A DNA stretch of 64,000 bases from an uncultured Gemmatimonadaceae bacterium (GCA_963740355.1 CAVUDW010000002.1:768001-832000), one strand, 5' to 3'; positions 24,002 through 62,220 are shown, counted from the stretch's first letter. Numbers and translations are program-made. Notes: generated from the sequence alone by a model not told the origin.

Positions 24002-25585
<1,584 letters not shown>

Positions 25586-25614
25586 TTCCGCGCATCACGG
25601 CAGCCTGACGCACC

Positions 25615-26478
25615 ATGGCCAAGGGTCGCGAGCTCAAGGGACGGATCAAGTCCGTCGAGAACACGAAGAAGATCACGCGCACCATGGAAATGGTGGCGAC
25701 GTCGAAGATGAAGCGCGCCGTCGATCGTGTGGCGGCCGCGCGTCCCTACGCGGCGGCGCTGGCTGAAGTCATCGGCGATCTGTACTCGGATGAACTGGCG
25801 GAGCAGTTTCCGCTACTGCGTCAGCCGGCGCAGATGAAGCGTGTTGCACACATCATCCTCACCTCGAACCGCGGCTTGTGCGGTGGCTTCAACGCCAACC
25901 TGGTGAAGGAAGCACGCACGCAGCTGGCCGCGCTCGAACAGCGCGGCTTGCAGGTCGAGCTGCATGTCGTGGGCAAGAAGGGCATCGGCTACTTCAAGTA
26001 CGTCAATCGTGCGATGGCGACGCAGCGCATCGACATCAGTGATCGCCCAACGGCCGCTGATGCGTCGTCACTGGTCGACTCGTTGATGGCCCGCTTCATC
26101 AGCGGCGAGCTCGATGCGGTGTTCGTCACCAGCTCGAAGTTCAACTCCGCCATCTCGACGCCGCCGCAGACCACGCAGGTGTTGCCGGTGAAGCCGCCTT
26201 CGGGCGGTTCCCTGAAGCGCGACTACCTGCTGTCGCCGTCGGCGGAAGCGATCCTCACCGAATTGCTGCCGGCTTATGTCAGCAACTCCGTGTATCGCGC
26301 ATTGGTGGAGACGGTGGCGGCCGAGCAGGGCGCCCGTCGCACCGCGATGAAGAATGCGACCGACAACGCCAGTGACATGTTGAGTACCCTGCGCCGCACG
26401 TACAATCGTGCCCGTCAGGCGCAGATCACGCAGGAAATCGCCGAGATCGTCGGCGGTGCAGCAGCACTGCAAGGCTAG
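25615..26478 (+). CDS. atpG: F1 ATP synthase subunit gamma
   Basis: KITRTMEMVA, RGLCGGFN, AMKNATDNA, RQAQITQEIAEIVGGA. Confidence 0.98.
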   Translation: MAKGRELKGRIKSVENTKKITRTMEMVATSKMKRAVDRVAAARPYAAALAEVIGDLYSDELAEQFPLLRQPAQMKRVAHIILTSNRGLCGGFNANLVKEARTQLAALEQRGLQVELHVVGKKGIGYFKYVNRAMATQRIDISDRPTAADASSLVDSLMARFISGELDAVFVTSSKFNSAISTPPQTTQVLPVKPPSGGSLKRDYLLSPSAEAILTELLPAYVSNSVYRALVETVAAEQGARRTAMKNATDNASDMLSTLRRTYNRARQAQITQEIAEIVGGAAALQG

Positions 26479-26491
26479 TACGCACCACTGA

Positions 26492-28215
<1,724 letters not shown>

Positions 28216-34771: not shown

Positions 34772-37700
34772 ATGACACGTAGTTCGTGGGTAGGGTTGCC
34801 TCGCGTCGCCGCAGTCATCGCCATGCTGTGTGGAACAGCGGCGATGGTCCAGGCACAGAACGCAACCATTCAGGGCAAGGTGACGTCCGACCAGGGACGT
34901 CCCATCGAAGGCGCGAACATCTTCATCACAGAGATGAACGTGTCAGTGGGCAGTAACGCTGCCGGCAACTACACGATCACCATTCCCGGGGCCCGCGTGC
35001 GTGGCCAGACGGTGGTGTTGCGTGCACGTTCCATCGGCCAGAAGCCGGAACAGGCAACGCTGGTGATCCGGCCGGGCGTGATCACCCAGAACTTCGTCCT
35101 CGTCGCTGACGTCAACCGTCTCAGCCAGGTCGTCGTGACTGGTGTGGCTGGTGCGACCGAGCAGACCAAGGTGACCTTCTCCCTCGCACGCGTCGATAGT
35201 GCTGACATGCCGGTTTCCGGCGTCAACCCGCTCACGCAGCTGCAGGGCAAGGTGGCCGGCGCCGCGATCGTCTCGAGCTCTGGACGCCCTGGCGCACAGC
35301 CGGCGGTGCTGCTCCGTGGACCGACCTCGCTCAACGCCTCCGGTCGCGGCCAGGATCCGCTCTACATCGTCGACGGCGTGATCCTCAACGGTCCGCTGCC
35401 CGACCTGAACTCGCTCGACATCGAAAGCATCGAAGTCGTGAAGGGCGCCGCCGGCGCGTCGCTCTACGGCGCACGCGCAGGCAACGGCGTGATCCAGATC
35501 ACCACCAAGACAGGCAAGGGTGGTGGAGAGAATGTCGTCCGCTTCGGCTTCCGCACTGAAGTCGGCGGTGGTGACATCTACAACAAGGTGCCGCTGGCGC
35601 AGAGCACGTTCCTGGCAACCGACGGCAAGGGCCAGGTGTATTGCTCGGCCGATGCCATTCCGGCCGCCGCGGGCACGTACTCGCAGCCCTGTGTGCGCAA
35701 GATCGACATTTACGCCGAGGCGCTGCGCGTCAACGAGCTCGGTGGTGACTTTGCACTCAATCCGCAGAGCTTCCGCTATGATGGCGGCATCGCCCTGGCG
35801 CTGTCGCAGCGCCAGCTCGCCGGGCTCTATCAGGTCAACCCGTGGCCGGTGACGTATGACGCCGTCGACGCCACGGTGACGAATGGCTCGTTCCAGACGA
35901 GCAACGTGGACGTGACCGGCAAGTATCAGGGTGCGAATTTCTTCGGCAGCATCTCGAACACCGGCCAGACCGGCTCGATTCGCGGCCTGACGGGCCTCAA
36001 GCGCAACACGGTTCGCCTCAACGTGTCGCAGCAGTTCGCGCAGAAGTGGACGGTTGGCCTGAACACGTTCTACAGCCGCCTCGGTCAGGATGGCATCAAC
36101 CAGGACGGCGGCAACGGCTTCTTCCGCCTGACGCGTGTGCCGGCGTACGTGAACCTGCTCGCCACGGATGCCTTCGGCCGCTACTACATCCGCACCAATC
36201 CGCTCAACCAGGGCGGCCAGAACGACAACCCGATCTACAGCTTCACGAATTCCGAGCGTGAAGACAGTCGCGACCGATTCCTCGGCAACGTCGACGTGAA
36301 GTTTACGCCGTTCTCATGGCTCGATGTGCAGGGCCAGTTCGGTTACGATCGCTCGAACGGCGCAGCATTCGGTCTGCAGGACCGCGGCTACCGCACCACA
36401 ACGTCGAGCCCGGCCACCAACAACGGCAACATCTTCCGTTCGTCTTTCGTCGACCAGTCGTACAACACCAGCTTCAACGCCACCGCGCGCCACCAGTTCG
36501 GCAAGCTGAGTGCAAAGGCCAATGCCCGTTACCTCTACGAGCAGCAGGATGGCTCGTCGATCAGCAACTCCGGCAGCAACATCCCGTTCCCGGGCCTGCA
36601 GAACTCCGGCTCGCTGGTGCAGAACCTCGGCATTGGCTCCGGCGTCTCGTCGGTGCGTGGCATCGGCATGTTCCTCAGCACGGACCTCGACTACAACGAC
36701 AAGTACATCCTTTCCGGCCTCATTCGCCGCGATGGATCGTCGCTGTTCGGTGCCGACAATCGCTGGGCGACGTTCGGTCGTGTCTCCGGCGCCTATCGCC
36801 TGAGCCAGGAAAAGTGGTGGCCGTCGAGCTTCATCAACGAGTTCAAGCTGCGCGCCTCGCAGGGATCGGCCGGTGGCCGTCCGAGCTTCGCGGCACAGTA
36901 TGAGACGTTCACGGTCTCGACCGGCGTCATCAACCCGACATTGCTTGGCAACAAGTTCCTGAAGCCGGAAATCAACACCGAGACCGAAGTCGGCATCGAC
37001 GCCGAAATCCTCAGCAAGTACGGCCTCACGGTGACGTACGCGCAGTCGAACATCCGCGACCAGATCCTTCCGGTCCCACAGCCGACGGTGACGGGATTCA
37101 GCTCGCAGTGGCAGAACGCCGGCACGCTGCAGAACAAGGTGTGGGAAGTATCGCTCAACATCCCGCTCATCAGCCGTCCGAACCTGTCGTGGTCCACGCG
37201 CGTGAACTTCGACCGCGTGCGCTCGCAGATCACGCAGCTCGGTGTGCCGGAGTTCTTCACGGCCACTGGCCTGCAGGGCGCTGACAACTCGTTCCGCTTT
37301 GCCGAAGGCGAGAATCTCGGCACGTTCTACGGTCGTCGCTGGGTCCGCGATTGCTCGCAGTTGCCGGCACCGTTCAACACGCAGTGTGGGGCGTACAACT
37401 CCGGCTCGACGTACGAGCCGAATCGTGATGGCTACATCGTCTACACGGGCGGCAAGAGCCAGGACAGCGCCTACACCAACAACTACTACCAGGCGCAGCT
37501 GGCGTCGGGTCCGTGGGCGCAGCGCCTGAACTACGGCATGTTGATCCAGCTGCGTGACTCAGCGACCGGCAACCTGACGCAGCAGAAGTTGGGCAGCGCA
37601 CTGCCGCAGTATCGCTGGAACTTCAGCAACACCTTCAGCTACAAGCGCCTGAACATCTACAGCCTGTTCGACGCGACGGTTGGCCAGAAGGTCTACAACC

Positions 37701-38119
37701 AGGGCCTGCACTGGTCGCTCGGCGACTTCGCGACACGTCAGCAGGACCAGCAGAATGAGAGCGTGACGACGGTTCGTCCGATTGGGTACTGGTGGCGCGG
37801 TGGCCCGCCGATCAACGGCGCGGGCATCGGCGGCTTCTACGACCTCTTGAGCGCTAGCGAGTACTCCACGGAAGACGCGACTTACGGTCGCCTCCGCGAA
37901 GTCTCTATGAGCTTCCGCGTGGGCAAGGTTGGTGGTGTCGGCAATTGGACGGTGGGCGTCGTGGGTCGCAATCTGTTCACGATCACGAACTACCGCGGCT
38001 TCGATCCCGAGACCGGCGTGGCCGGTGGCCAGCTGGGTTCGGCCGTGCTCAACGGTATCGATCGCTATGGGTTCCCGAACCTGCGCACGTTCACCTTCTC
38101 GCTCGGCTCGAGCTTCTGA
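34772..38119 (+). CDS. SusC/RagA-family TonB-dependent transporter 2
   Basis: PLYIVDG, DIESIEVVKGAAGASLYGARAGNGVIQITTK, LKPE, YRGFDPE, terminal Phe. Confidence 0.95.
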   Translation: MTRSSWVGLPRVAAVIAMLCGTAAMVQAQNATIQGKVTSDQGRPIEGANIFITEMNVSVGSNAAGNYTITIPGARVRGQTVVLRARSIGQKPEQATLVIRPGVITQNFVLVADVNRLSQVVVTGVAGATEQTKVTFSLARVDSADMPVSGVNPLTQLQGKVAGAAIVSSSGRPGAQPAVLLRGPTSLNASGRGQDPLYIVDGVILNGPLPDLNSLDIESIEVVKGAAGASLYGARAGNGVIQITTKTGKGGGENVVRFGFRTEVGGGDIYNKVPLAQSTFLATDGKGQVYCSADAIPAAAGTYSQPCVRKIDIYAEALRVNELGGDFALNPQSFRYDGGIALALSQRQLAGLYQVNPWPVTYDAVDATVTNGSFQTSNVDVTGKYQGANFFGSISNTGQTGSIRGLTGLKRNTVRLNVSQQFAQKWTVGLNTFYSRLGQDGINQDGGNGFFRLTRVPAYVNLLATDAFGRYYIRTNPLNQGGQNDNPIYSFTNSEREDSRDRFLGNVDVKFTPFSWLDVQGQFGYDRSNGAAFGLQDRGYRTTTSSPATNNGNIFRSSFVDQSYNTSFNATARHQFGKLSAKANARYLYEQQDGSSISNSGSNIPFPGLQNSGSLVQNLGIGSGVSSVRGIGMFLSTDLDYNDKYILSGLIRRDGSSLFGADNRWATFGRVSGAYRLSQEKWWPSSFINEFKLRASQGSAGGRPSFAAQYETFTVSTGVINPTLLGNKFLKPEINTETEVGIDAEILSKYGLTVTYAQSNIRDQILPVPQPTVTGFSSQWQNAGTLQNKVWEVSLNIPLISRPNLSWSTRVNFDRVRSQITQLGVPEFFTATGLQGADNSFRFAEGENLGTFYGRRWVRDCSQLPAPFNTQCGAYNSGSTYEPNRDGYIVYTGGKSQDSAYTNNYYQAQLASGPWAQRLNYGMLIQLRDSATGNLTQQKLGSALPQYRWNFSNTFSYKRLNIYSLFDATVGQKVYNQGLHWSLGDFATRQQDQQNESVTTVRPIGYWWRGGPPINGAGIGGFYDLLSASEYSTEDATYGRLREVSMSFRVGKVGGVGNWTVGVVGRNLFTITNYRGFDPETGVAGGQLGSAVLNGIDRYGFPNLRTFTFSLGSSF

Positions 38120-38190
38120 GCCGGACCGGAGTGGGCGCGACGCTGAACGGCGGCGCGCCTGATCCGGGCCTCATAAAACGAGACCATATA

Positions 38191-39831
38191 ATGAAGATTC
38201 GCCTTTCCCGACTGGTGACGCTCGTGAGCGTTGCCAGCCTGGCGGCCTGCGGTGACCCGCTCAGTGTGTCCAACAAGAACGTGGTGGACGTCACATCGGC
38301 ACAGCAGACCGCGCAGGGTATTGAACAGATCATTGGCAAGTCGTTCCAGGCCATGTTCGTCGGCCAGTACAACAGCGGCGGTATCATGCTGCAGGCGATC
38401 AACATGGCGCATGAGAGCAGTTCGTCGCTCGGCAACTTCGGCATGGGCCTGCGCAACGGCGTGCCACGGGTTGCAATCGACAACTCGCGCGCGAACTCGA
38501 CGGCCACGGGGACGAACGCCGACTTCTCGGTGCTGACGCGCCTCGCGCGCCAGAACGTGAATGCGCTGCGGGCGCTCGACAACATCTCGGCCAGCTCTGC
38601 CCCGACGGCCGGTCGCTCGCGCGCCTTCGGTTACTTCGTCCTCGGTTATGCCATGGGCAACCTGGCGGCCATTTACGACTCGGCTGCGATCCTCACGCCT
38701 TCACGGACACCGGAAGATTCGCTCTTCAGCGCGGCGGTCGTGAATGCTCAGGCGCTCGCCATGCTCGACTCCGCGCTCCTGACCGTTCGCGGTCCTGCCG
38801 GTGCGGCGCCGAACTTCCCGATTCCGGCCGACTTCATGACCGGCACCGCGATCGACACCACGCAGTTCATTCGCATGGTGCGCTCGTACAAGGCGAAGTT
38901 CCGCGCCGGCATCGCACGCACGCCAGCGCAGCGCGCTGCGGTGAACTGGGAATTGGTCCGCGCCGACGCCGCAGCCGGCATCACCGCCAACATCACCATC
39001 GCGCTCGATCCGTCCATCGGCTGGTCGAACAGCGACCTGACGACGCTGATGCAGTTCATCGGGTGGCACCAGACGCCGGCGTTCATCCTCGGCATGGCTG
39101 ACACCAGTGGCACGTACAGCTCATATCTGTCGCTGCCTATCACGGGCAGCCCGTCACGCAATGGCGCCACCGTGCTGATTCGCACGCCGGACAAGCGCTT
39201 CCCGGTTGGTGAAACGCGTGCGGCGCAGCAGACATTCCAGAGCGATGTGGTTCCTCTCTCGGGTGTCTACTTCCGCAATCGTCCCAGCGGCCAGGACACC
39301 GGCAACAACGCCGACCCATGGTCAAACTCGGTGTACGACAACTTCCGATTCCGACCGATTCGCGATGCGAACGGTATCGGGAGCTGGGTGTTGATGGCCG
39401 CCACGGAAATCCGGATGCTTCAGGCCGAGGCGCTGATGAATCTCGGTCGTACGGCCGAGGCGATTCCGCTGATCAACGTGACACGCACGGCCAACAACCT
39501 GCCGGCGATTCCGACGACGGCAGCGTCCACGGATCCGGTTCCCGGAGGCACAGCCTGTGTGCCGCGCGTTCCGCAGCCGGGCGTCTACACGACGGCGGTG
39601 TGTGGCTCCGTGTTCGAAGCGATGAAGTGGGAGAAGCGTCTGGAAACGCAGCTGACTGGCTACTGTCAGTGGTTCCTTGACGCCCGTGGCTGGGGCGACC
39701 TGCCGGTCGGTACGGGTCTGTCGTGGCCGGTGCCGTATCAGGAGCTGGATTCGCGCGCCAAGCCGCTGTACAACGGCATCGAGCTCGCTGGGGCCAGCAC
39801 ATATGGTCTCGGACGCGGCAACGGTTTCTGA
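38191..39831 (+). CDS. SusD/RagB-like lipoprotein 2
   Basis: Lipobox LAAC, EIRMLQAEA, WEKRLE, WFLDARGWG, WPVPYQE. Confidence 0.88.
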   Translation: MKIRLSRLVTLVSVASLAACGDPLSVSNKNVVDVTSAQQTAQGIEQIIGKSFQAMFVGQYNSGGIMLQAINMAHESSSSLGNFGMGLRNGVPRVAIDNSRANSTATGTNADFSVLTRLARQNVNALRALDNISASSAPTAGRSRAFGYFVLGYAMGNLAAIYDSAAILTPSRTPEDSLFSAAVVNAQALAMLDSALLTVRGPAGAAPNFPIPADFMTGTAIDTTQFIRMVRSYKAKFRAGIARTPAQRAAVNWELVRADAAAGITANITIALDPSIGWSNSDLTTLMQFIGWHQTPAFILGMADTSGTYSSYLSLPITGSPSRNGATVLIRTPDKRFPVGETRAAQQTFQSDVVPLSGVYFRNRPSGQDTGNNADPWSNSVYDNFRFRPIRDANGIGSWVLMAATEIRMLQAEALMNLGRTAEAIPLINVTRTANNLPAIPTTAASTDPVPGGTACVPRVPQPGVYTTAVCGSVFEAMKWEKRLETQLTGYCQWFLDARGWGDLPVGTGLSWPVPYQELDSRAKPLYNGIELAGASTYGLGRGNGF

Positions 39832-39834
39832 GTG

Positions 39835-40299
39835 ATGTCAGCGTCGACGTTTTCGCGCACGATCGTGGCTGCCGTCACGGCCTTCGGGTTGAGCGGTTGC
39901 TACGAATACGTCCCGATGCAAAGCACGACCGCGGCCAGCCCGCGGGTGGAAGTGCTGGTCACGGACCGCGGGCGCGTCGAGCTGACACCGCAGCTCGGTC
40001 AGGGTGTGCTGTCGTTCGAAGGCACGCTCGACCGTCGCAGCGACTCTTCGTACGTGGTTCGGGTGGCCGAGGTGACGTACATCAACCGGCAAACGAATCG
40101 CTGGAGTGGTGAACCAATCACGGTGTCGCAGGGTGCGGTGCGCGACATCCGGGTTCGACGTCTCTCGAAGCTGCGCACGTTTGCTGTGGTGGCCGGTTCC
40201 GTAGGTGCGGGAATCGTCTTCGTGGTGTCACGCGGCCTGTTTGGCGGCGGCTCCATCGATTCGGATCCCAATCCACCGCCGCCGCCGAACGGCCAGTGA
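39835..40299 (+). CDS. Hypothetical lipoprotein with a C-terminal hydrophobic helix
   Basis: Lipobox LSGC-YEYVP; co-oriented after susD. Confidence 0.7.
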   Translation: MSASTFSRTIVAAVTAFGLSGCYEYVPMQSTTAASPRVEVLVTDRGRVELTPQLGQGVLSFEGTLDRRSDSSYVVRVAEVTYINRQTNRWSGEPITVSQGAVRDIRVRRLSKLRTFAVVAGSVGAGIVFVVSRGLFGGGSIDSDPNPPPPPNGQ

Positions 40300-40348
40300 T
40301 CGGTCCCTCATCTTCTCCATTCATCGAATTCCTTTTTCACTGAATCCC

Positions 40349-41200
40349 ATGACCTTCCGTCTCTCCCCCGCGCTGCGCGTCGCGGTTGCCGTACTGGCAA
40401 CCGGTCTGATGGCCGCGTGCAGCAAGGACACTGGTCCGACCGTCAACACGCTCGGTCCCCGCGCCAGTGTGCGCGTGATCAACGCAGTGCCCGATACGGG
40501 CTCCATGGACTACCGGTTCGTCGACAGCGTCGAAGCACCGATCGAACTCGGTCTGGTGTTCCGCGCGGCCTCGGGGTACCAGCCGTTCAAGGTCGGTGCG
40601 CGTCGCGTGCGTGCCTTCGCCGCAAGCCAGTCACCGACCATCGTGTTCGGCGCGCCGATCATCGACCAGGTGATCAACCTCGAGGCGAACAAGTACTACA
40701 CGCTCATCCATGTCGGCCTCGCGAACACGGGCGGCACGGGTGACAGCATCATCGTGCTCGTCGACAGCATCCCGACGCTGGCGGCGTTGAACAACAGCGT
40801 CGCGATCCGCGGCGTGCATGCCGCACCGTCGGTGGGCGCCGTGAATGTCTTCACGACGCGCACGGTTGCTGCAGCGCTACCGGCAACACCGGCCTTCGCG
40901 AACCTGCAGTACGGTCGCACCACGGGCTACATCCGTCTGACGGCGCCTGATTCGGTTGCCGCGCGCATCTCCGTCGCCGCGAGCCCAACCACTGTGCTTT
41001 CCGCACTGGCACAGGTCGGTCAGGCCGGTACGTCGCAGCTGAATCCGATCGGTGGCTCACGCATCGCCGGCACGTCTTTGTCGGCAGTGGCATTCCCGGC
41101 CGGCCTCGGCGCACGCGCCACGGGCACGGCCACCACGCCGTCGGTCGTCTGGTTCGTCGATGGCGATCCGCCGGAGACGGTGCCGAGGCTCCGCCCGTAA
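40349..41200 (+). CDS. DUF4397-like lipoprotein
   Basis: Lipobox MAAC; two repeats VRVINAVPD / IRGVHAAPSVGAVNV. Confidence 0.8.
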   Translation: MTFRLSPALRVAVAVLATGLMAACSKDTGPTVNTLGPRASVRVINAVPDTGSMDYRFVDSVEAPIELGLVFRAASGYQPFKVGARRVRAFAASQSPTIVFGAPIIDQVINLEANKYYTLIHVGLANTGGTGDSIIVLVDSIPTLAALNNSVAIRGVHAAPSVGAVNVFTTRTVAAALPATPAFANLQYGRTTGYIRLTAPDSVAARISVAASPTTVLSALAQVGQAGTSQLNPIGGSRIAGTSLSAVAFPAGLGARATGTATTPSVVWFVDGDPPETVPRLRP

Positions 41201-41297: not shown

Positions 41298-42443
41298 TTA
41301 CGGTTGCGCGGCGCGGAATGCGATGGTCATCCGCACACGCTGTGCGACGGGCTGCTCGTTGCGACGTGCCGGTTCGAAGGTGAAGAGCGGAAGCCCCTCG
41401 AGCGCAGCCTCGCCAAACGCCTTGTGGGTGCTGGCGACGACCCGCGCGGTGCGGGTGTACGGCCGCCCGTCGCTGGCTACCACCAGCTCGAGTTGCACTT
41501 CACCATCCAGAGCCTTGCGACGCAATGACGCTGGATACACGGGCGTCACACTACGTGCGGTGTCGAGCTGCGCCAGCGCGTCGACATCGGCTTCGCTGAA
41601 GATCAGCGAATCCGGAAGCGTCTCGCCGCGTGCGACATGCGGCTCCGGCAGGTAGGTATCCGATCGTCGCGACCAGATCGCAATGGTGCCGCACCGGCTG
41701 CCGTTGTTGAGTGCGAGGAACTCGGGCGGCGTGCGGGACGCGTCAGGGTAGACCTCCACCGCTGCCAGCCCTCGCGGGTCGAAGCCTTCGGTGTTGATCT
41801 CGCCGATGTTGGCCTGAGCCATCCCATCGATGATCAACAACGGATAGCACCGCTCGGCGACGCGTCGTCCTCCGCGCCCGGGGAGCGACGTGGGGCGCAT
41901 GCCAAGTTCGCCGAGACCGTTGACGGTGCGGAGCACGTCGCTGAGGCGCTGGGCATTGCGGGATAACATGTCCGCATGAGTAAAGAACACGCCTTCGCCC
42001 TTGGCACGCCTTTCGTAAAATGCGGCCAGAGGGCCACTATATACGGGGCGACGCGCGGCGGAGACGGTGACCGTGCTGAGGCGGGCGGCTATCGGGTCGA
42101 CAGTCACGACGGTGGCGATCGGTGCCACACCGCAGGATGGGAAGAGCATGATCCTCGCCGGCGCGAAGCCGAGTCGGCGAACGCGGGCGTAGATCGGCGA
42201 GCTGGAGGCGGTGGGGATTCGTGTCTCACCGAGTGAATCGGTCCGGTGCAATGCGTCGCCAATCACGACCGTTGCTTCCGGCAGTGCGGTACCGCTGCTG
42301 TCACGCACCTGCACCGACGCAGCACAGGAGGTCGCTGTTTGCGCCGACAGCCACGCCGCTGTCAGCGACTCGGCGACGAGCAGCGACAGCGCGCGAACGG
42401 AACGCGATTTGGTACAGGGAAAGGCACTCAGCAAGCGAAACAT
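41298..42443 (-). CDS. Secreted CarboxypepD-reg-like + barrel-less TBDT plug + TonB C-terminal domain fusion
   Basis: VRDSSGTALPEATV, VRRLGF, LSTVTVSA, FYERR.KGEGVF, CYPLLIIDG, VEVY, CGTIAIWSR, then PVYPASLRRKALDGEV.LELVV..DGR...FEPARRN. Confidence 0.8.
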   Translation of the reverse strand: MFRLLSAFPCTKSRSVRALSLLVAESLTAAWLSAQTATSCAASVQVRDSSGTALPEATVVIGDALHRTDSLGETRIPTASSSPIYARVRRLGFAPARIMLFPSCGVAPIATVVTVDPIAARLSTVTVSAARRPVYSGPLAAFYERRAKGEGVFFTHADMLSRNAQRLSDVLRTVNGLGELGMRPTSLPGRGGRRVAERCYPLLIIDGMAQANIGEINTEGFDPRGLAAVEVYPDASRTPPEFLALNNGSRCGTIAIWSRRSDTYLPEPHVARGETLPDSLIFSEADVDALAQLDTARSVTPVYPASLRRKALDGEVQLELVVASDGRPYTRTARVVASTHKAFGEAALEGLPLFTFEPARRNEQPVAQRVRMTIAFRAAQP

Positions 42444-42478
42444 CTGCGAACCCTTCAACCTCCTGTGGCGGTCGGCCG

Positions 42479-43591
42479 ATGACGAACGAGCAGCTGCGAC
42501 TGCGGTATGCTGGAATCTGTCATGCCGCCCTGAGGGCTGCTGCCGCCGGCGCCGTCCTGCTCTTCAGTTGGGCAGTACTGCCTGGTCAGACGACGGCGAC
42601 TGCGAAAATGGTTGCGGACCGCGATTCGACCGCAATCCTGGCCGGTCTCGTGCGCGACTCCCTCGGCCGTCCCGTCACGAACGCCACGGTGTCGGAAGTC
42701 GGCATCGATCCCATGAGCACAACGACTGACAGCGCTGGCCGTTTCCGACTGGTTGGCATCAGGGCTGGACACTCACGGGTCGAGGTACGGCGCTCAGGCT
42801 ACGCGATGTTGGGGTTCGATTTCGAGATTGCTCCAGGCATCACCGTCGAACTGGAACTGACGCTGCTGCCTGCCGAGAGAGTCCTGCCGACCTTCGTGAC
42901 GGTCGACGCTGTCGATTCTCTCGGTATTCCCGGTCGGTGGAATGTCGTTGAAGGGACGGTCACCGATTCGACTGGCAGACCCTTGAGCGGAGTGTCGGTC
43001 CAGGGCATGTCCACTGAGCTGGCAGCGACGACCGGCGAAGATGGCCGCTTCGCACTTCGCAAAGTCGCACCGGGGCTGCATTTCCTTCGTCTGCGAAAGC
43101 TCGGTCACCTCCCTGAATACGCGCCGCTTCGAGTGACGGAACGGCAGCGCGTGACACTGCGCGTCGTTCTTCGCCCAGCGTCCGGCGCTCCAATGCTGGC
43201 CGGCGTGACCATCCGGGAAGACGCACGAATGGCGGGCTTTTTCGAACGACGGCGCCGCGGCGGCGGGATCTTCGTGACCCGTGAGGATCTGGAACAGAAA
43301 TACGTCTTCGAGATCTCGGATGCGCTCCGTGGCCGGAAGGCGGTGGATGTGCGTCCGAATTCCGAGGGGGACCGGATCATCGTCGGACGGCGAAGCCTTC
43401 TCGAAGCTCGGTGCCCGCTGGGTCTCCTGATCGACGGGATGCCGTTCATCGGCCCGCCGATCTCGATCGACCGACTCGTCACCGTCAAGCATGTGCGCGC
43501 CATGGAAGTCTACACAAACGGCGCCTCCGTGCCGCTGGGTTTTCAGCAGTCGGCGACCGACTGCGGTGCGATCCTGATCTGGACGCGATGA
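42479..43591 (+). CDS. Secreted 2x CarboxypepD-reg-like + barrel-less TBDT plug protein
   Basis: GLVRDSLGRPV / GTVTDSTGRPL repeats, GFFERRRRGGGIF, CPLGLLIDG, MEVY, CGAILIWTR-stop. Confidence 0.8.
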   Translation: MTNEQLRLRYAGICHAALRAAAAGAVLLFSWAVLPGQTTATAKMVADRDSTAILAGLVRDSLGRPVTNATVSEVGIDPMSTTTDSAGRFRLVGIRAGHSRVEVRRSGYAMLGFDFEIAPGITVELELTLLPAERVLPTFVTVDAVDSLGIPGRWNVVEGTVTDSTGRPLSGVSVQGMSTELAATTGEDGRFALRKVAPGLHFLRLRKLGHLPEYAPLRVTERQRVTLRVVLRPASGAPMLAGVTIREDARMAGFFERRRRGGGIFVTREDLEQKYVFEISDALRGRKAVDVRPNSEGDRIIVGRRSLLEARCPLGLLIDGMPFIGPPISIDRLVTVKHVRAMEVYTNGASVPLGFQQSATDCGAILIWTR

Positions 43592-43689
43592 GGACGAAGG
43601 GAGGCTCGCGTGTCTGCTCGATTGTCGGCAGACCACAACTGCTGGCTCAGGCGTAAACTTCCAGCCCGGAATTGGGTATTCTGCAGGCA

Positions 43690-44826
43690 ATGCACAGACT
43701 TCCTTTTCTCGCGCCGCGCTTTGTCCGCGCCGCGGCGGCGAGCCTGATTCTGGCCGTGTCGGCGCCAGTATTCGGCGTGGCAACAGCACGGGCGCAGGGC
43801 GTTCCTCTGGCGAAGGACTCGGCCCCGAAGGCAACCATCGCGGGCGTGGTGGTCGACAGCCTGGGGAAGCCGGTCAGCAACGCGACGGTTCGGGTGGCCG
43901 GCGGCTCGCCTTCGACCACGACCGATAGCCAGGGGCAGTTCCGCCTCGAAGGGGTGCCCGCCGGCGAAGCCCGAGTTCAGGTCACCGGCGACGGCTACAC
44001 ACCGCTCGGCTTCGAGTTTGCGATTGCGGCGAATGTGACGGTGTCGCTGAAACTGACACTGCTTCCGGCACCGCCATCCGCTGCGCCGCCTCCGGCTGCC
44101 GCCGCAGTAGACGCGCCGGTGATCGCTGGCCCGCCAGACTCCTCAAAGGTCCCGCAAGGACGTACGATCGTTGCCGGCAAGGTCGTCGACTCGGCCGGCA
44201 AGCCGATTTTCGGTGCGTCGGTACAGGCGGTGTCGACAGCGATAGGGACCATGAGTGATTCGTCGGGCCGGTTCCGGCTCTCAAACCTTACGCCGGGCCT
44301 GATCTTCGTGCGCGTCCGCAAGATCGGATACCTCTCCGAATATTTCCCGCTGCAGACGGAAGCCGGCCGCGTCGCGTCGCTGACCGTGAAGCTGCGCCCG
44401 GCATCCAATGCACCGTCGCTGGCACGGGTCGAGGTCCGCGCCGATGCACGACGCGATGCGCGCATGGTGGGCTTCTACGAGCGGATGCGATTGGGCAACG
44501 GCGTGTTCGTGGAGCGCGAGGAATTGCTGCGCCGCAACACCTCGAACGTGACGGAGATCCTGCGCGGCCGGAATGGCGTGAACATCATTCGTGATGCCAA
44601 CAACAACGCAGTGGTGTTCGGGCGCAACCTGACGGGCGCGGGCTACTGCGCGATGGGTGTGCTGGTGGATGGCGTGTTCGTGAACACGCAGGGAATGAGC
44701 ATCGATCAGCTGGTCAACACGCAGGACGTGCGTGCGATCGAGGTGTACAAGACCGGGCCGAGCGTCCCGAACGAGTTTCAACGTCGCGAGACGGACTGCG
44801 GTGCGGTGTTGATCTGGACGCGGTGA
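43690..44826 (+). CDS. Secreted 2x CarboxypepD-reg-like + barrel-less TBDT plug protein
   Basis: GVVVDSLGKPV / GKVVDSAGKPI repeats, GFYERMRLGNGVF, CAMGVLVDG, IEVYK, CGAVLIWTR-stop. Confidence 0.85.
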   Translation: MHRLPFLAPRFVRAAAASLILAVSAPVFGVATARAQGVPLAKDSAPKATIAGVVVDSLGKPVSNATVRVAGGSPSTTTDSQGQFRLEGVPAGEARVQVTGDGYTPLGFEFAIAANVTVSLKLTLLPAPPSAAPPPAAAAVDAPVIAGPPDSSKVPQGRTIVAGKVVDSAGKPIFGASVQAVSTAIGTMSDSSGRFRLSNLTPGLIFVRVRKIGYLSEYFPLQTEAGRVASLTVKLRPASNAPSLARVEVRADARRDARMVGFYERMRLGNGVFVEREELLRRNTSNVTEILRGRNGVNIIRDANNNAVVFGRNLTGAGYCAMGVLVDGVFVNTQGMSIDQLVNTQDVRAIEVYKTGPSVPNEFQRRETDCGAVLIWTR

Positions 44827-46746: not shown

Positions 46747-48042
46747 CTATGCGAGCAGTGACAGAACGAGGCTCGTAGCGCGGTCAGCGGCACCGAGTCC
46801 GTGCTGGACACGTTCACGTGCACGCGCGCCTGCAGTGTCGCGGGCGCTGGAGTCGGTGGGAGAGAGCCAGGTCGTGAGCACGTCGACCAGTTCAGCACTG
46901 GTGCGCACGCTTCGGGCGGCGCCGTCAGCGAGCAGCAACTCGGCGTCGCGGCTGTTTCGGAATTGAGGTCCGAAGATCACCGGCGCGCCGAAGGCCGCCG
47001 GTTCGAGCACGGAGTGCAACCCGGCGGAATGAAACCCGCCGCCGACGAAGGCCACGTCTGCGATCCCGTAGAGATCACCGAGTACGCCGACGCGATCGAC
47101 GAGGACAACGTCGGCCGTGGCGTCGTCAGTGGCGTCGAGGCGTGTACAGCGGAGCTTCTGTTGTGCGGCCCACGACTCGATTGGCGCCAGGTGTGCGGCG
47201 GTCGGCTCGTGGGGGGCGATGACCAGGCGCAGCGCGCCCGGGTACTTTCGCGTCAGTTCGAGCCACGCGGGCAGGAGCACGGTATCGTCGGCCGGCCATG
47301 TCGAGCCTGCGACCAGCGTGAGGCGTGTCGTCTCGCGGAAACGCGTGAGCCATGGCGCAGACTGTGCGACGGCCGACGCGCGGGCCCAAACCTGATCGTA
47401 CCGCGTGTCGCCGGTGACCTGGATCACTTCCGGACGCACACCGATTTCCACCAGTCGCGCCGCGTCGGCTTCATCGATCGCACCGACGGCATCGAGTGCC
47501 GCGTACGCATCGCGGGTCAGTGCGGCGGCGATGCCGTGGCGCCGCCCGGAACCTTCGGCGAGTGTGGCGCTGATCATGCCGAGCTTCACGTCATGCGCCT
47601 TGGCTTGTTCAACCAAAAGCGGCCAGACATCGAGCTTGCTGAAGATCAGTGCTGTGGGGTGCAGCGCCTCGACGGCGGCGCGCATGTCGTGCGTGGTGTC
47701 GAAGGGGAGGTAATCGCGGAAGTCGGCGCCGGTGCGTTGTGCGAACGCCGCGGCGCTTGGCGAGAAGTGCGTGTACGCCAACTGGATGTCGGGGCGGTGT
47801 TGCCGCAATTGCGACATCACGGGGACCGCTTGCAGTCCTTCACCAACACTAGGTGCATGGAACCAGACCAGGGGACGTGACCGAGCGCGCGCAGTTCGAC
47901 CAAACGCTGCGTATCGATCGAGCAGTCCTCGACGGCCAGATATCGTCCGCGCGAGTTTGCCGTCGCCAGGAACGCCGGTGGCAACGGCGAGTCGCGCAAT
48001 CGCGCCTGCGCCGGCGTACAATCCGCGCAGGAGCGGGTTCAT
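46747..48042 (-). CDS. waaA: 3-deoxy-D-manno-octulosonate (Kdo) transferase
   Basis: WFHAPSVGE, YLPFD, TGDTRYD, AGSTW, IAPH, AFVGGGF...HSVLEPA.FG.PVIFGP. Confidence 0.92.
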   Translation of the reverse strand: MNPLLRGLYAGAGAIARLAVATGVPGDGKLARTISGRRGLLDRYAAFGRTARARSRPLVWFHAPSVGEGLQAVPVMSQLRQHRPDIQLAYTHFSPSAAAFAQRTGADFRDYLPFDTTHDMRAAVEALHPTALIFSKLDVWPLLVEQAKAHDVKLGMISATLAEGSGRRHGIAAALTRDAYAALDAVGAIDEADAARLVEIGVRPEVIQVTGDTRYDQVWARASAVAQSAPWLTRFRETTRLTLVAGSTWPADDTVLLPAWLELTRKYPGALRLVIAPHEPTAAHLAPIESWAAQQKLRCTRLDATDDATADVVLVDRVGVLGDLYGIADVAFVGGGFHSAGLHSVLEPAAFGAPVIFGPQFRNSRDAELLLADGAARSVRTSAELVDVLTTWLSPTDSSARDTAGARARERVQHGLGAADRATSLVLSLLA

Positions 48043-54200: not shown

Positions 54201-57200
54201 CTGCCGACGTGGCGCCGTCGCGTAGTGTCGGTGACCGGTGCCACAGTCGCGGTGGCACTGGTTGCATGCTCGAAGGCACCGCCGGTGGACACGAGTTGGC
54301 ACCAGGAGTCGGGCTACCGGTGGCGCGCGCTCGCGGTTCCTTTGAAGGGCAAGGCCGGTTTCGAGTTGCTGACGTCATCGCGAACAGGCCTGTTGCACCG
54401 CAACGACATCGATGACACGCGCGCCCTCGACAATCGTGGGCTGCTGGACGGCGCCGGCGTGGCGATCGGTGACGTCGATGGTGACGGCCGTCCGGACATC
54501 GTGCTGGCATCGGAGGAAGTGCCGGCTGCGTTGTATCACAATGACGGCGAGTTCCGCTTCAGCGACGTGACGAAAGCGAGTGGGCTCGACTTCACGGGCC
54601 TGCAGACGACTAGCGTGGTACTGGTCGACGTCGATGGCGACCGGGATCTCGATCTGGTGGTGGGAACGTTCGGTGGGCCGGTGGTGCTGTTTTCGAACGA
54701 CGGCAAGGGGCATTTCACGAATGCCACTGCGGGCAGTGGGCTCGCCGGTGGCTACAACGCCACCACGATGACGCTGGCCGATGTCGACGGCAATGGATCG
54801 CTCGATCTCTACGTGGCCACGTACAAGACACGCAATGCGCTCGATGCCTACACACCGCAGCAGCGGGCGTTCGACCAGGTGTTGAAGAAGGTCGGCGATT
54901 CCGTCGTGGTGGTGGACGAGTGGAAGAAGGAGTTTCGCGTCGAGGCGAGGCCGGACCTGGGCGGGTTCATGCGCTCGCAGCGCGCCGAGCCTGACCTGTT
55001 CTTCCTCAATGACGGCAAGGGGCACTTTACGCGCACGCCGGTGCTCGGCCCGCGATTCCGCGATGAACGTGGTGCGCCGCTGACGGTCGATCCTGACTAC
55101 TTCGGGCTCGCCGCACGCTTCTACGATGTGAATGGCGACGGTGCGCCGGATCTCTACGTCTGCAATGACCTCGAAGACCCGGACCTGTTCTTCCTCAACG
55201 ATGGCACGGGTGGGTTTCAACTCGCACCGGAGCGTGCGTTGCGGGTGACAAGCAACACCTGCATGTCGGTCGACTTCGGCGATGTGAATCGGGACGGGCA
55301 CACCGACATCTTCACCACCGACATGCTGGCGCCCACGCTGGCGGCGCAGCAGCGCAGCATCCCCACACATACACCGCTGCAGAAGCCGGTGGGACTGTCG
55401 CCGGAGCGCACGCAATGGATGCGCAACATGCTGCAGCTGTCGCGGGGTGATGGGACGTGGGCGCAGGTCGGCGACTTTGCTGGCGTGACGGCGACCGACT
55501 GGACGTGGGGATCGGCGTTCCTCGATGTCGACCTCGATGGGTACGAGGATCTGCTGGCCGCGAATGGACATCGCTACGACCTGCGCGAGGCCGATCCCTA
55601 CGATCGGATTCGCAACAGCTTTCCCCGTGTGCCGTGGAATCGGGAGTCGAAGGAGTTTCCGCGTCTCGAGACGCGCAGTGTGGCCTTCCGGAACGGCCAC
55701 GACCTCGCGTTCACCGACGAGAGTGCCGCGTGGGGCTTCGGCGTCGACAAGGCTATCTCGCAGGGCATCGCGCTGGGCGACCTTGATGGGGATGGAGCAC
55801 TGGATGTGGTCGTGACGCGACTGGACGCGCCGTCGGTCGTGTATCGCAATACCTCCGCCGCGCCGCGTATCAGTGTGCGACTCAGAGGCAGTGGTGCGAA
55901 CACGCAGGGGATTGGTGCCGTGATCACGGTGCGTTCGCCGGCGCTGCCGGTGCAGTCCCGCGAAGTGACCTCGGGCGGCTACTACCTCTCGGGGAGTGAT
56001 GCACAGCTGACCTTTGCCGCACATCCTGATAGCGCCAGCCAGATCACGGTGCGCTGGCGGAGCGGCCGTGTGAGCACGATTGCACTTGCGGCGAGCAATC
56101 GACTGTACGAGATCGATGAAGCAGGTGCGGTCGAGGGTACACCAGCGAGAGACTCGAGTGCAAAGCGCCCAGCGCTCTTCGCCGATGCAACACCACTGTT
56201 GGCCGGCGCAACGCATGTGGATTCGTTGTACGCCGACTTCCGCCGCCAGCCGTTGTTGCCGAATCGCTTCAGTCAGCTGGGCCCAGGGGTCAGCTGGATC
56301 GACGTTGATGGCGATGGCCGCGACGACCTGGTCTTCGGCACTGGCCGTGGCGGTGCGTTGCATATTCTGCGTAACGCTGGCGGCCGTTTCGTACCGCTCG
56401 ACGTGGGGAAGGGCACGTCGGCGTACGATCTCACGACCGTGCTGCCAGCCTTCGGTGGAACCGGTGGGGTGTCCCTGCTAGTGGGGCAGTCGAGTTACGA
56501 GGCATCGGACAGCATCGTGCCTTCGACGGTGCCGTCGGTACTGGCGATCGGCGTTGGTGCGCGTACCGCGTTGCCTGCGGTGGCAGTCGCGGGGGACACG
56601 GCGAGTGTGGGGCCGATGGCGATGGCGGATGTGAATGGCGATGGGATGCTCGACTTGTTCGTCGGCGCGCGTGTGATTCCGGGCGCATGGCCCTTGCCGG
56701 CGCGCTCACGATTGCTGCTCGGCTCAGCCAGCGGCGCGTTCGTCGAGGATGTGGCCAATCGCGGCGCGATGTCGAGCCTCGGCCTCGTGTCGGGCGCGAC
56801 CTTCGCTGATCTCGACGGCGATGGACGCCCTGAGCTGATCGTGGCCACCGAATTCGGTCCGGTCCGTGTCCTGCACAACGACCGCGGGACACTGCGCGAC
56901 CAGACGAAATCACTCGGCTTCGGTGATCGATCGAGCCGCTGGAATGGTGTGACCACCGGTGACTTCGATGGGGATGGGCGTCTGGATATCGTCGCCACCA
57001 GCTGGGGGCGCAACGTGCCCTGGCAGACCTCTGCGCAGCGCCCCTACGAGTTGCTGGTGGCGCGCGTGGATGGTGACCGGCTCGGGCTGCTCTTTGCGCG
57101 CCGCGATTCGCTCACGTCGCGGGAGATGCCACTGGATGGTTTCGCGCGTATCGGTGCCGCGATTCCATCGGTGAAGGAACGGTTCGCGACGTTCGACGCC

Positions 57201-57926
57201 TTTGCCCGCGCCGATGCCGACGCGGTGCTGGGTGAGTCGGCCGCGAAGGCGGTGCGTGTCGGCGCAACGACGTTCGATCATACGATCTTCCTCAATCGCG
57301 GCGATCACTTCGAAGCGCATGCGTTGCCGACTGCCGCGCAGCTTGCGCCGGCGTTTGGTGTCGTGGTCGCTGACTTCGATGGCGACGGGCGCGAGGACCT
57401 GTTCCTGGCGCAGAACTTCTTCCCCACCGAGATCAACGCGATGCGTTTCGATGCCGGGGCGGGGTTATTGCTGCGCGGCGATGGCAAGGGCGGTTTTGAG
57501 CCACAGCCCATCCCCTCGAGCGGGATCGCAGTGCTCGGTGACCAGCGCGGTGCGGCAGCCGCCGACTATGACGGTGATGGTCGAGTCGATCTGGCGGTCT
57601 CGCAGAACGGTGCGCCGATGACGCTGTGGCACAACGTGGGCGGTTCCCCCGGCGTGCGCGTCCGGTTGCAGGGGCCGGCGAGCAATCCGCTTGGCATCGG
57701 CGTTCGGTTGCAGATCGTCAGCGGGGCAACGCGCGGACCGCTGCGCGAGGTGCATGCGGGCAGCGGCTACTGGTCGATGGATGCTGCGACGCAGGTGCTG
57801 GCGGTGCCGGCTGGAGCGACGGAAGTGCTGGTACGCTGGCCATCGGGTACCGAACAGCGTGTGCCGGTCACCGTTGGGCAGCGTGTCGTGACGGTGGTGT
57901 TTCCGACGCCCGCTGCGCCTCGCTGA
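54201..57926 (+). CDS. FG-GAP/VCBS-repeat lipoprotein with ASPIC/UnbV domains (CRTAC1-like)
   Basis: Many D(V/F/L)(D/N)GDG..D repeats, two N..GIG...GY.S ASPIC-like segments, LVAC lipobox; start CTG 54201 or GTG 54225. Confidence 0.88.
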   Translation: MPTWRRRVVSVTGATVAVALVACSKAPPVDTSWHQESGYRWRALAVPLKGKAGFELLTSSRTGLLHRNDIDDTRALDNRGLLDGAGVAIGDVDGDGRPDIVLASEEVPAALYHNDGEFRFSDVTKASGLDFTGLQTTSVVLVDVDGDRDLDLVVGTFGGPVVLFSNDGKGHFTNATAGSGLAGGYNATTMTLADVDGNGSLDLYVATYKTRNALDAYTPQQRAFDQVLKKVGDSVVVVDEWKKEFRVEARPDLGGFMRSQRAEPDLFFLNDGKGHFTRTPVLGPRFRDERGAPLTVDPDYFGLAARFYDVNGDGAPDLYVCNDLEDPDLFFLNDGTGGFQLAPERALRVTSNTCMSVDFGDVNRDGHTDIFTTDMLAPTLAAQQRSIPTHTPLQKPVGLSPERTQWMRNMLQLSRGDGTWAQVGDFAGVTATDWTWGSAFLDVDLDGYEDLLAANGHRYDLREADPYDRIRNSFPRVPWNRESKEFPRLETRSVAFRNGHDLAFTDESAAWGFGVDKAISQGIALGDLDGDGALDVVVTRLDAPSVVYRNTSAAPRISVRLRGSGANTQGIGAVITVRSPALPVQSREVTSGGYYLSGSDAQLTFAAHPDSASQITVRWRSGRVSTIALAASNRLYEIDEAGAVEGTPARDSSAKRPALFADATPLLAGATHVDSLYADFRRQPLLPNRFSQLGPGVSWIDVDGDGRDDLVFGTGRGGALHILRNAGGRFVPLDVGKGTSAYDLTTVLPAFGGTGGVSLLVGQSSYEASDSIVPSTVPSVLAIGVGARTALPAVAVAGDTASVGPMAMADVNGDGMLDLFVGARVIPGAWPLPARSRLLLGSASGAFVEDVANRGAMSSLGLVSGATFADLDGDGRPELIVATEFGPVRVLHNDRGTLRDQTKSLGFGDRSSRWNGVTTGDFDGDGRLDIVATSWGRNVPWQTSAQRPYELLVARVDGDRLGLLFARRDSLTSREMPLDGFARIGAAIPSVKERFATFDAFARADADAVLGESAAKAVRVGATTFDHTIFLNRGDHFEAHALPTAAQLAPAFGVVVADFDGDGREDLFLAQNFFPTEINAMRFDAGAGLLLRGDGKGGFEPQPIPSSGIAVLGDQRGAAAADYDGDGRVDLAVSQNGAPMTLWHNVGGSPGVRVRLQGPASNPLGIGVRLQIVSGATRGPLREVHAGSGYWSMDAATQVLAVPAGATEVLVRWPSGTEQRVPVTVGQRVVTVVFPTPAAPR

Positions 57927-57949: not shown

Positions 57950-58753
57950 TTACGGCTGCTTCTTGCGCCGTGCGGGTCCGGATTTCGTCCAGATGACGAT
58001 CACACCGCAACCCGCATTGCGTCCCGCGTATTCGCCGGGCACGTCGGCGGGGCCAGTGTAAACCTCTAGCCCCTCGATGTCGCGCACAGGCATCGTCGGG
58101 CCAAACATGTTGTCGACGTTGTCGTCCACGATGTACTCGGGGGTGCAGCGCATCGGCGCCCTGACCATTCTGATCACGCAGCCCCCCTGCGCACCGCCGC
58201 CGCACTCGACGTTCACGCCGCGAAGCGAACGGGCGACATCCTGCAGGTTGGAGAACTGCCTCTGTTCGATCTGTTCGCGCGTCACGTATTGACCCGCGCC
58301 AGTCTTTCGGCGCCGTTCGAAGTTGGCGAATCGCGGGCCAAGGCTGCGCTCGCCTTCCACCGTCACCGGCGCGAGCATCTGCCCGCGTGAGGCCGATTCC
58401 GTTGGCGGGGGTGCTGGGCGGCTCGCAACAGGTGTCGAATCCAGTTCCACTCGGCTGTCGAGACTCTCACCGGGCGACAGAGCGACGACCAGTGCACCGG
58501 CCGGGAATCCGTCGGCGCGGATCAGGAATCGAGCGATTCCCATTGGGAGCTTGTCGAATCGGAACAGGCCCGTGGAGTCGGTCTTCTTCGCGCTGCCATC
58601 GCCGAGAAAAACGACAGTGGCGTTGGCGACCGGGGCACCGCTACTGCGATCGACGACCGAGCCGTTGACGCGCGCGTTCTTCGTCTGCGCACCTGCTGAG
58701 CGCGAGGCGCAGAGGGCAACCAGCAGCAGGAAGCCGACACGGAACCGACGCAT
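57950..58753 (-). CDS. Secreted CarboxypepD-reg-like + barrel-less TBDT plug protein
   Basis: Signal peptide, GSVVDRSSGAPV, LAPVTVEG, FERRRKTGAGQYVTREQI, CTPEYIVD, LEVY.G, CGVIVIWTK. Confidence 0.85.
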   Translation of the reverse strand: MRRFRVGFLLLVALCASRSAGAQTKNARVNGSVVDRSSGAPVANATVVFLGDGSAKKTDSTGLFRFDKLPMGIARFLIRADGFPAGALVVALSPGESLDSRVELDSTPVASRPAPPPTESASRGQMLAPVTVEGERSLGPRFANFERRRKTGAGQYVTREQIEQRQFSNLQDVARSLRGVNVECGGGAQGGCVIRMVRAPMRCTPEYIVDDNVDNMFGPTMPVRDIEGLEVYTGPADVPGEYAGRNAGCGVIVIWTKSGPARRKKQP

Positions 58754-58837: not shown

Positions 58838-59098
58838 CCACGCCGCGACCATTGCCAGCACGGCAGTTTGCGTTGATACTGTCACAAAGCGATGTCCGGC
58901 TGACGACGGTCGGACCGCAGGACAACCGAAAGCCACCGCACGCGACATGCTAGCGATTCTCTCCCTGACTTACGGCGTCGGGGATTGTTTCGTTGCAGGT
59001 CGCCTTGGTGCCTTTCGGAGATCGTCTGCTGTGTTCCATGCGTGAGACACAGCAAACGCGGTTGCAGTTTCCTCTCCTCCACCCCAAGAGGTTACACC

Positions 59099-62194: not shown

Positions 62195-62220
62195 TCCATA
62201 CTCACACAGGATCTGACTAG

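Follow-up and report, generated by a model that had tools for sequence, protein, structure and literature searches.

A stretch of 64,000 nucleotides from an uncultured Gemmatimonadaceae bacterium (GCA_963740355.1, CAVUDW010000002.1:768001-832000), referred to as the window and with positions counted from its first letter, was analysed around a minus-strand gene that joins a plug without a barrel to a TonB C-terminal domain, here called the fusion gene (Table 1). From the N-terminus, the encoded fusion protein comprises a signal-peptide-like segment, a transthyretin-like domain of the type called N-terminal extension (NTE) in SusC transporters, the strand LSTVTVSA resembling a TonB box, a plug fold ending in the motif CGTIAIWSR (residues 251-259), a linker and the TonB C-terminal domain (TonB_C), with the frame reading through from the plug motif into this last domain. 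An alternative first start, TTG at 42458, would give an open reading frame (ORF) of 386 amino acids (aa) at 41298-42458 on the minus strand; the ATG at 42443 appears to be the best start, because the N-termini of the relatives fit it. A motif AGGAGG lies 15 nt before this ATG on the strand of the gene, abutting the alternative TTG.

Table 1. Features of the fusion gene and its neighbours in the window (pLDDT, predicted local distance difference test score; MAG, metagenome-assembled genome).
Feature	Position	Strand	Basis or remark
Fusion gene, 381 aa plus stop from ATG	41298..42443	-	ORF list; N-termini of relatives fit the ATG start
Signal-peptide-like N-terminus, residues 1-35, ending A-Q	42339..42443	-	A34 and Q35 at least 90% conserved in 108 relatives; cleavage presumed
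Transthyretin-like, SusC NTE-type domain (CarboxypepD_reg), residues 40-114, with Cys40 and Cys104	42102..42326	-	pLDDT about 97, fold matches, Pfam
TonB-box-like strand LSTVTVSA, residues 122-129	42057..42080	-	Alignment with SusC TonB boxes
Plug-fold domain, residues 140-261, ending CGTIAIWSR, with Cys199 and Cys251, no barrel after it	41661..42026	-	Fold and Pfam matches
Start of the flexible plug-to-TonB_C linker, residues 262-287, low in proline	41583..41660	-	pLDDT <50 at residues 266-273
TonB C-terminal domain, residues 288-380, invariant Y303-P304	41304..41582	-	Pfam, fold, similarity to TonB of the genome
Paralogue 1: two CarboxypepD_reg and a barrel-less plug, ending ILIWTR	42479..43591	+	Divergent arrangement kept in related MAG loci L006 and L007
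Paralogue 2: two CarboxypepD_reg and a barrel-less plug, ending VLIWTR	43672..44826	+	Conserved in L006, L007 and L009
Convergent operon	34772..41200	+	Pfam; tail-to-tail with the fusion gene
SusC-like transporter	34772-38119	+	Pfam
SusD-like protein	38185-39831	+	Pfam
155-aa protein (p155), lipoprotein-like N-terminus	39832-40299	+	Operon member
DUF4397 protein	40346-41200	+	Pfam

The initial annotation had placed a plug and, after its motif CGTIAIWSR, a TonB_C domain in one chain and had expected a Pfam match on the C-terminal part, and both claims were confirmed. Pfam TonB_C matched residues 301-377 with an E-value of 4.6e-11 and a score of 43.5 bits, the cut-off being 24.6, and the NCBIfam model tonB_Cterm (TIGR01352) was also matched (39.2 bits against a cut-off of 27.1). 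When the fusion protein was scanned by itself, the matches to Plug (residues 155-236, E-value of 0.013) and CarboxypepD_reg (residues 44-98, E-value of 0.0015) were below threshold; these two assignments are secured by the counts at the level of the family and by fold matches. In particular, a set of 108 aligned relatives, composed of 10 close matches and 98 of the best 150 representatives of an exhaustive search, was scanned one by one, with matches to Plug in 106 of them, to TonB_C in 105 and to CarboxypepD_reg in 100.

This alignment was used to build an AlphaFold2 model of the fusion protein, with a mean pLDDT of 84.7. The modelled NTE (residues 40-114) matched the transthyretin-like domain 5aq0_B with a Z-score of 12.8 and the SusC NTE 9hfj with a Z-score of 11.7, while the modelled plug (residues 140-261) was aligned over 96 residues to the plug of Fiu (chain 58-177; Z-score of 8.8, root-mean-square deviation (rmsd) of 2.9). 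For the TonB_C model (residues 288-380), 89 residues were aligned to the C-terminal domain of Pseudomonas aeruginosa TonB solved on FoxA (6i97; Z-score of 11.0, rmsd of 1.9); 2gsk_B was matched with a Z-score of 9.7, and the domain superposed with rmsd of 1.5-1.9 on TonB C-terminal domains solved in complex with TonB boxes. It was also 32% identical to the C-terminal domain of the genome's own TonB. Moreover, an unbiased fold search with the model of residues 115-381 returned, above a Z-score of 3.3, only C-terminal domains of TonB and TolA and the plugs of about 30 transporters, the best plug being that of FyuA (Z-score of 7.2).

The strand LSTVTVSA aligned column by column to the TonB box (L-x-x-V-V-V-T-G) found in the window SusC and in nine SusC proteins adjoining members of the family. 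Across the family, the consensus of this strand was LxxVxVxA, which keeps the alternation L-x-x-V-x-V compared with L-x-E-V-V-V-T-G in the neighbouring SusC. AlphaFold2 placed residues 125-128 in a strand both with and without the NTE, at pLDDT of 61-76 (about 61-63 in the model of residues 115-381). Regarding the cysteines, C199 and C251 were at least 90% conserved in the whole family, and C40 and C104 reached the same level in the close clade. Such conserved pairs fit an oxidising compartment and a periplasmic protein, and the plug probably holds a disulfide.

TonB is coupled to the ExbB/ExbD motor through an N-terminal transmembrane helix with an S-x3-H (SHLS) motif, which is needed to draw energy (PMC12204202). 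The two TonB proteins of this genome have a strongly hydrophobic helix carrying S-V-[IV]-L-H, with hydropathies over 19 residues of 2.39 and 2.11, compared with 1.28 for the N-terminus of the fusion protein (family median of 1.57). The motif S-x3-H was not found in the N-terminus of the fusion protein; among the 108 relatives it was present in 5, and SHLS in none. Furthermore, the N-terminus of the family was variable save for an A-Q junction, conserved in at least 90% of members and located a few residues before the first NTE strand. The three full SusC-like transporters of the window, which must be cleaved, had the same A-Q junction before the NTE and signal-peptide hydropathies of 1.2-1.71. 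No spacer spanning the periplasm was present, as two folded domains occupy the region from the N-terminus to TonB_C, and the stretch joining the plug to TonB_C (residues 259-300) was 42 aa long with 7% proline (family median of 47 aa, range of 40-54). The view of the initial annotation that the chain starts with a signal-peptide-like segment instead of an ExbB/ExbD-coupling helix, and that it has neither a TonB-type anchor nor a proline-rich spacer, therefore stands, and the fusion protein is predicted to be exported and free of an anchor. A lipoprotein was also considered and rejected, since no consistent lipobox preceded Cys40 and this residue was not conserved in the wider family. The canonical exbB-exbD-tonB cluster of the genome was located on another contig, with the second TonB elsewhere; no exbB or exbD was seen among the examined neighbours of 20 distant loci of the family, while four related MAG loci were compared only with the proteins of the window.

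The fusion was conserved well outside this assembly. A word-indexed search gave 39 matches, about 30 of which were 65-82% identical and 367-389 aa long; several of these close relatives, from Gemmatimonadaceae MAGs, were annotated as 'TonB family protein'. The exhaustive search covered 1.84 billion representatives (50% clustering) and yielded 7990 matches at E-values of up to 1e-3 and 32 at up to 1e-30. The 98 of the best 150 representatives that entered the alignment were 363-423 aa long, and each was covered by a single match running from the NTE up to the TonB_C end. The remaining representatives were mainly proteins of 450-1017 aa with three to eight tandem TonB_C-like stretches (e.g. P0077, P0099 and P0122), unlike any TonB. 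The conservation in close and distant relatives led to the rejection of an assembly chimera or a frameshift, and the architecture was not unique to this assembly. No longer homologue fusing a barrel to this protein was found in the search made for it, which is weak evidence.

A profile of the family was then searched in 201 sampled genomes of the phylum, a sample and tallies that include four genomes flagged as unpublished (G097, G182, G057 and G157); because scoring was limited to nine candidates in each genome, all counts are minimum values. A match at an E-value of up to 1e-20 was found in at least 192 of the 201 genomes. Within the best 150 rows, the full length of the profile was covered in at least 29 places of 21 genomes which, among the matches listed, were this genome, at least 19 of 38 others of its family and at least 1 of the sister family's 96. 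The remaining 121 rows stopped at about profile position 258, and 112 of them lay in open frames of less than 700 aa, corresponding to barrel-less NTE-plug proteins without TonB_C. The taxon labels seen for the relatives were only Gemmatimonadaceae or Gemmatimonadales, and 10 distant members were labelled Gemmatimonadaceae or had no taxon. The fusion gene is a real and conserved gene of Gemmatimonadaceae and neither an artefact nor a one-off, and the fusion of a plug and TonB_C is a widespread, uncharacterised variant assembled from domains already known. Searches of the literature for plug-TonB_C fusions, as well as for barrel-less or stand-alone plug proteins, found nothing on either in the titles, abstracts and passages covered.

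The kinship with barrel-less plugs proposed in the initial annotation was recovered with a plug profile built from the fusion protein's own family and run over all ORFs of the genome. The fusion protein ranked first, the next 15 ranks were taken by ORFs of 258-567 aa, and full transporters came only after these 16 ORFs of less than 600 aa. Of the 16 barrel-less plug ORFs, 13 ended at a motif of the type W-[ST]-[RK] or no more than six residues from it, and the fusion protein was the only one that also matched the TonB_C profile. Four further ORFs of the genome carried TonB_C, namely the two TonB proteins and proteins of 166 and 557 aa. Both paralogues next to the fusion gene and a 267-aa ORF (57950-58753) belonged to the clade of barrel-less plugs. 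Like the fusion protein, the barrel-less NTE-plug proteins of Gemmatimonadota have the N-terminal module, a cysteine pair and an ending C-G-x-[IV]-x-[IV]-W-[ST]-[RK]; unlike it, they stop at the plug. The features by which the group is recognized, namely a signal peptide, CarboxypepD_reg, a TonB-box strand, a plug with a cysteine pair ending in W-[ST]-[RK] and no barrel, were all found in the fusion protein. These proteins are uncharacterised and are annotated at most as carboxypeptidase-regulatory-like or Plug. By the logic of domain fusion, the existence of the fusion protein suggests that barrel-less plug proteins probably meet TonB C-terminal domains.

In the window, barrel-less plugs cluster around SusC/SusD loci, because a fourth such gene, the 267-aa NTE-plug protein (57950-58753, minus strand), adjoins a second SusC-like/SusD-like pair (58985-63783, plus strand), from which it is separated head-to-head by 232 bp; the other 12 in the genome had no SusC-like barrel within 6 kb. 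As for the barrels, 31 of the 34 barrel matches in the genome were accompanied by a Plug match of their own, immediately upstream on the same strand, and the other three lay in frames of more than 1000 aa; hence the genome has no stock of orphan barrels that could correspond to the 16 barrel-less plugs. In two places (G000:C3:299770-301817 and G000:C3:1134398-1136369), Plug and barrel adjoined on one strand in different frames (497/583 and 547/368 aa, respectively); split transporters, frameshifts and assembly errors are possible explanations.

The head-to-head arrangement with the paralogue at 42479 was as initially described, with 35 bp between the two ATG codons, or 20 bp from the TTG at 42458. 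The paralogy concerns the NTE and plug part only (29% identity, E-value of 2.8e-13), and the related MAG locus L009 keeps a single gene of the paralogue 2 type in the divergent position. With divergent starts so close (42444-42478), the promoters must sit within neighbouring coding regions. On the other side, the order SusC, SusD, p155 and DUF4397 was found beside the orthologues of the fusion gene in three of the four related MAG loci (L006, L007 and L008), while L009 showed the DUF4397 and 155-aa genes before the contig ended. The 155-aa and DUF4397 genes, kept in the four related MAG loci (the former also in L024), seem to accompany this type of SusC/SusD system as fixed accessory genes.

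To extend the context, the loci of 20 full-length members, distant at about 30% identity and drawn from 16 genomes, were taken. In 9 of these 20 loci, the gene directly downstream, on the same strand, was a complete SusC-like gene, with a detectable SusD-like gene after it in five of the nine; for comparison, positions within 1 kb of a SusC-like gene make up about 0.4% of this genome. The SusC genes adjoining members of the family keep their own NTE and plug. In one of the nine, L024, the family member was upstream, on the same strand, of genes orthologous to SusC, SusD and the 155-aa protein of the window (50, 46 and 46% identity, respectively). In a tree of 25 members, the 14 loci linked to SusC fell in three places, which were the window clade of five, a well-supported clade of eight and L024. 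The 14 loci are not independent events, but the link with SusC has survived rearrangement. The functional connection to SusC put forward in the initial annotation is therefore supported by these nine distant loci and by the conserved locus of the window. That the fusion protein regulates SusC gating, as it also proposed, is an inference, and self-inhibition with LSTVTVS paired to TonB_C, which it raised as well, is hypothetical.

A GDSL/TPR protein was encoded upstream of the fusion gene in five of the nine SusC-linked distant loci. In these loci, which are from different genera (L017, L018, L021, L023 and L025), a GDSL-lipase-like protein of 614-694 aa directly preceded the fusion gene and SusC; TPR matches were found in that of L018, L021 and L023, and L017, L018 and L025 each had a detectable SusD-like gene. 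Since the GDSL-lipase-like gene recurs in this position in five loci from different genera, a conserved operon of GDSL-lipase-like protein, fusion protein and SusC is suggested, whose substrate might be an ester-bearing polymer. In two other distant loci, barrel-less plugs with several NTE domains followed the fusion gene, and in a third locus it was beside another TonB_C protein. The former two (L020:7545-10516 and L028:1168-5566, from two genomes) encode barrel-less proteins of about 485-595 aa by the longest ORF call; one of them (485 aa) was scanned and had three CarboxypepD_reg stretches before a divergent plug, and the others had three matches to the NTE profile. The neighbours were varied in 8 of the 20 loci, and the contexts of those lacking SusC included genes for peptidases, PLD-like proteins and cytochrome c biogenesis.

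When compared with known systems, the fusion protein shares its C-terminal fold and the Y-P motif with the TonB transducers (Escherichia coli TonB, P. aeruginosa TonB1; PF03544), which differ from it in having an S-x3-H anchor, a periplasm-spanning domain rich in Pro, Lys and Glu and a linkage to exbBD; they lack, in turn, its signal-peptide-like N-terminus, NTE, TonB box and plug. With the SusC/RagA transporters (e.g. BT1763 and the window SusC) it shares the signal peptide, NTE, TonB box and plug in the same order. However, these continue into a 22-strand barrel, whereas the fusion protein goes from the last motif of the plug to the linker and TonB_C, and its plug clusters with the barrel-less plugs and not with transporter plugs. 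No barrel was matched in it by Pfam, the SusC model TIGR04056 was not matched either, and the whole family is 363-423 aa long. As it fails two TonB features (anchor and spacer) and one transporter feature (barrel), the fusion protein is a member of neither class and shares domains with both. The closest published architecture found was that of TonB7 (BT3192) and TonB11 (BT4460) of Bacteroides thetaiotaomicron, uncharacterised proteins in which a CarboxypepD_reg-like, NTE-type domain precedes TonB_C; the likeness concerns domain order only, and the portions of the source describing them report no Plug domain (PMC10350073). The transporters of the MxcH type (NCBIfam NF038079) also have TonB_C and a plug in one polypeptide, but in the reversed order, with TonB_C first, and with a full barrel. 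Residues 298-380 matched only positions 7-87 of that model and scored 41.7 bits where the cut-off is 925; the fusion protein is therefore not an MxcH member.

For the fusion protein, a role as a Sec-exported, unanchored and passive periplasmic 'hook-and-eye' accessory of SusC-like transporters is proposed from its domains and gene contexts, with about an even chance of being correct. The exported chain would carry the complete periplasm-facing front end of a SusC (NTE, TonB-box strand and plug) without the barrel, tethered by about 40 flexible residues to a canonical TonB C-terminal domain. Without an ExbB/ExbD-coupling helix and a periplasm-spanning spacer, it would be unable to transduce energy itself. 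The C-terminal domains of TonB and TolA bind their targets by beta-strand addition (PMC12204202), and TonB_C, the hook, would grasp an exposed TonB box in this manner; the candidate boxes are those of the neighbouring SusC, of the barrel-less paralogues next door or of the fusion protein itself. Its own NTE and TonB box, the eye, would stay available to an energised TonB. A passive part in the contact between TonB and SusC is thus taken from the presence of a hook and an eye on a chain with no contact to the motor, and it may take three forms: a bridge or relay between TonB and SusC, a brake or competitor that occupies TonB boxes or TonB, or a self-capped reserve. Several observations weigh against this role. 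The TonB box is degenerate in some members of the family (e.g. LPTVYAQA), and the cleavage of the signal peptide is deduced solely from composition and analogy. The confidence of AlphaFold2 between domains is low, with a predicted template modelling score (pTM) of 0.50 for the full length and 0.48 for residues 115-381, which leaves the arrangement of the domains open either way. Moreover, the fusion gene is convergent with the SusC/SusD operon of the window and not co-transcribed with it, 11 of the 20 distant loci have no SusC neighbour, and eight of the nine co-directional SusC cases form one clade and are not independent events.

A more elaborate version, in which the fusion protein is a substrate-gated clutch or force relay, is considered unlikely. 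TonB_C would cap its own box at rest and switch to the exposed box of a loaded SusC, thereby freeing the NTE and box for TonB; force would then reach the transporter through two beta-strand additions linked as a daisy chain, the plug of the adaptor serving as an in-line mechanical element whose conserved cysteine pair may form a disulfide. If true, a soluble and modular layer would be added to TonB-dependent transport, and the barrel-less plug proteins would acquire a role as alternative eyes for one hook. It is similarly improbable that the protein is self-contained, with TonB_C binding its own box in cis or in trans (closed or as a head-to-tail oligomer) and a role unrelated to SusC, such as a reserve or buffer. 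The high effective concentration expected from a hook and an eye separated by the plug and about 40 aa of linker, the modelling of residues 125-128 as a strand in either model and the distant loci lacking SusC all favour it, but no docked state can be called with confidence at such low pTM and moderate pLDDT, and the recurrent linkage to SusC/SusD would be left unexplained.

The chances are slimmer that the fusion protein is a genuine energised TonB paralogue, whose uncleaved helix couples to ExbB/ExbD and whose NTE and plug replace the spacer. The annotation of relatives as 'TonB family protein', the helix drawn by AlphaFold2 at residues 17-30 and the domain order of TonB7 and TonB11 (PMC10350073) would agree with it; however, the scarcity of S-x3-H, the low hydropathy, the variable N-terminus with an A-Q junction common to SusC signal peptides and the location of the canonical exbB-exbD-tonB cluster elsewhere, with no exbB or exbD seen in the inspected surroundings of the 20 distant loci, argue against it. 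Equally doubtful is that TonB_C serves only as a docking module, for instance to peptidoglycan or an envelope protein, which positions a ligand-sensing plug and NTE without binding a TonB box. Although TonB_C occurs in many non-transducer contexts (three to eight tandem stretches, a fusion with Peptidase_M56) and the genome itself has the 166-aa and 557-aa TonB_C proteins, the invariant Y-P is kept, the domain superposes on box-bound TonB C-terminal domains and its fusion partner carries a TonB-box-like strand. Finally, the barrel-less plug could work in trans as the plug of a separate, plug-less barrel, with TonB_C aiding the docking. The plug fold is whole and stops at the point at which a barrel would start, and the genome has the two places with Plug and barrel in different frames; nevertheless, this is very unlikely, as nearly all barrels of the genome (31 of 34) have their own Plug, the other three lie in frames of more than 1000 aa, and the SusC genes adjoining family members retain theirs.

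TonB-dependent import is understood as a contact between two parties, an anchored TonB and a barrel with its plug. This family puts a TonB box and a TonB_C domain on one soluble chain, often encoded with SusC/SusD, which points to an additional participant that could adjust, extend or block the coupling of energy in a phylum where such transporters abound. The fusion is also a first functional hint for a large set of barrel-less plug proteins. Furthermore, it bears on the NTE of SusC, which precedes the TonB box, whose deletion abolishes growth in Bacteroides and whose role is described as unexplained (PMC7782687).

Other genes of the window were ordinary. They included those for the alpha, gamma and beta subunits of an F-type ATP synthase (24002-27961), a Ser/Thr kinase of 1050 aa with TPR (14953-18105), an FG-GAP/ASPIC protein of 1233 aa (54225-57926) and a Kdo transferase (46747-48042).

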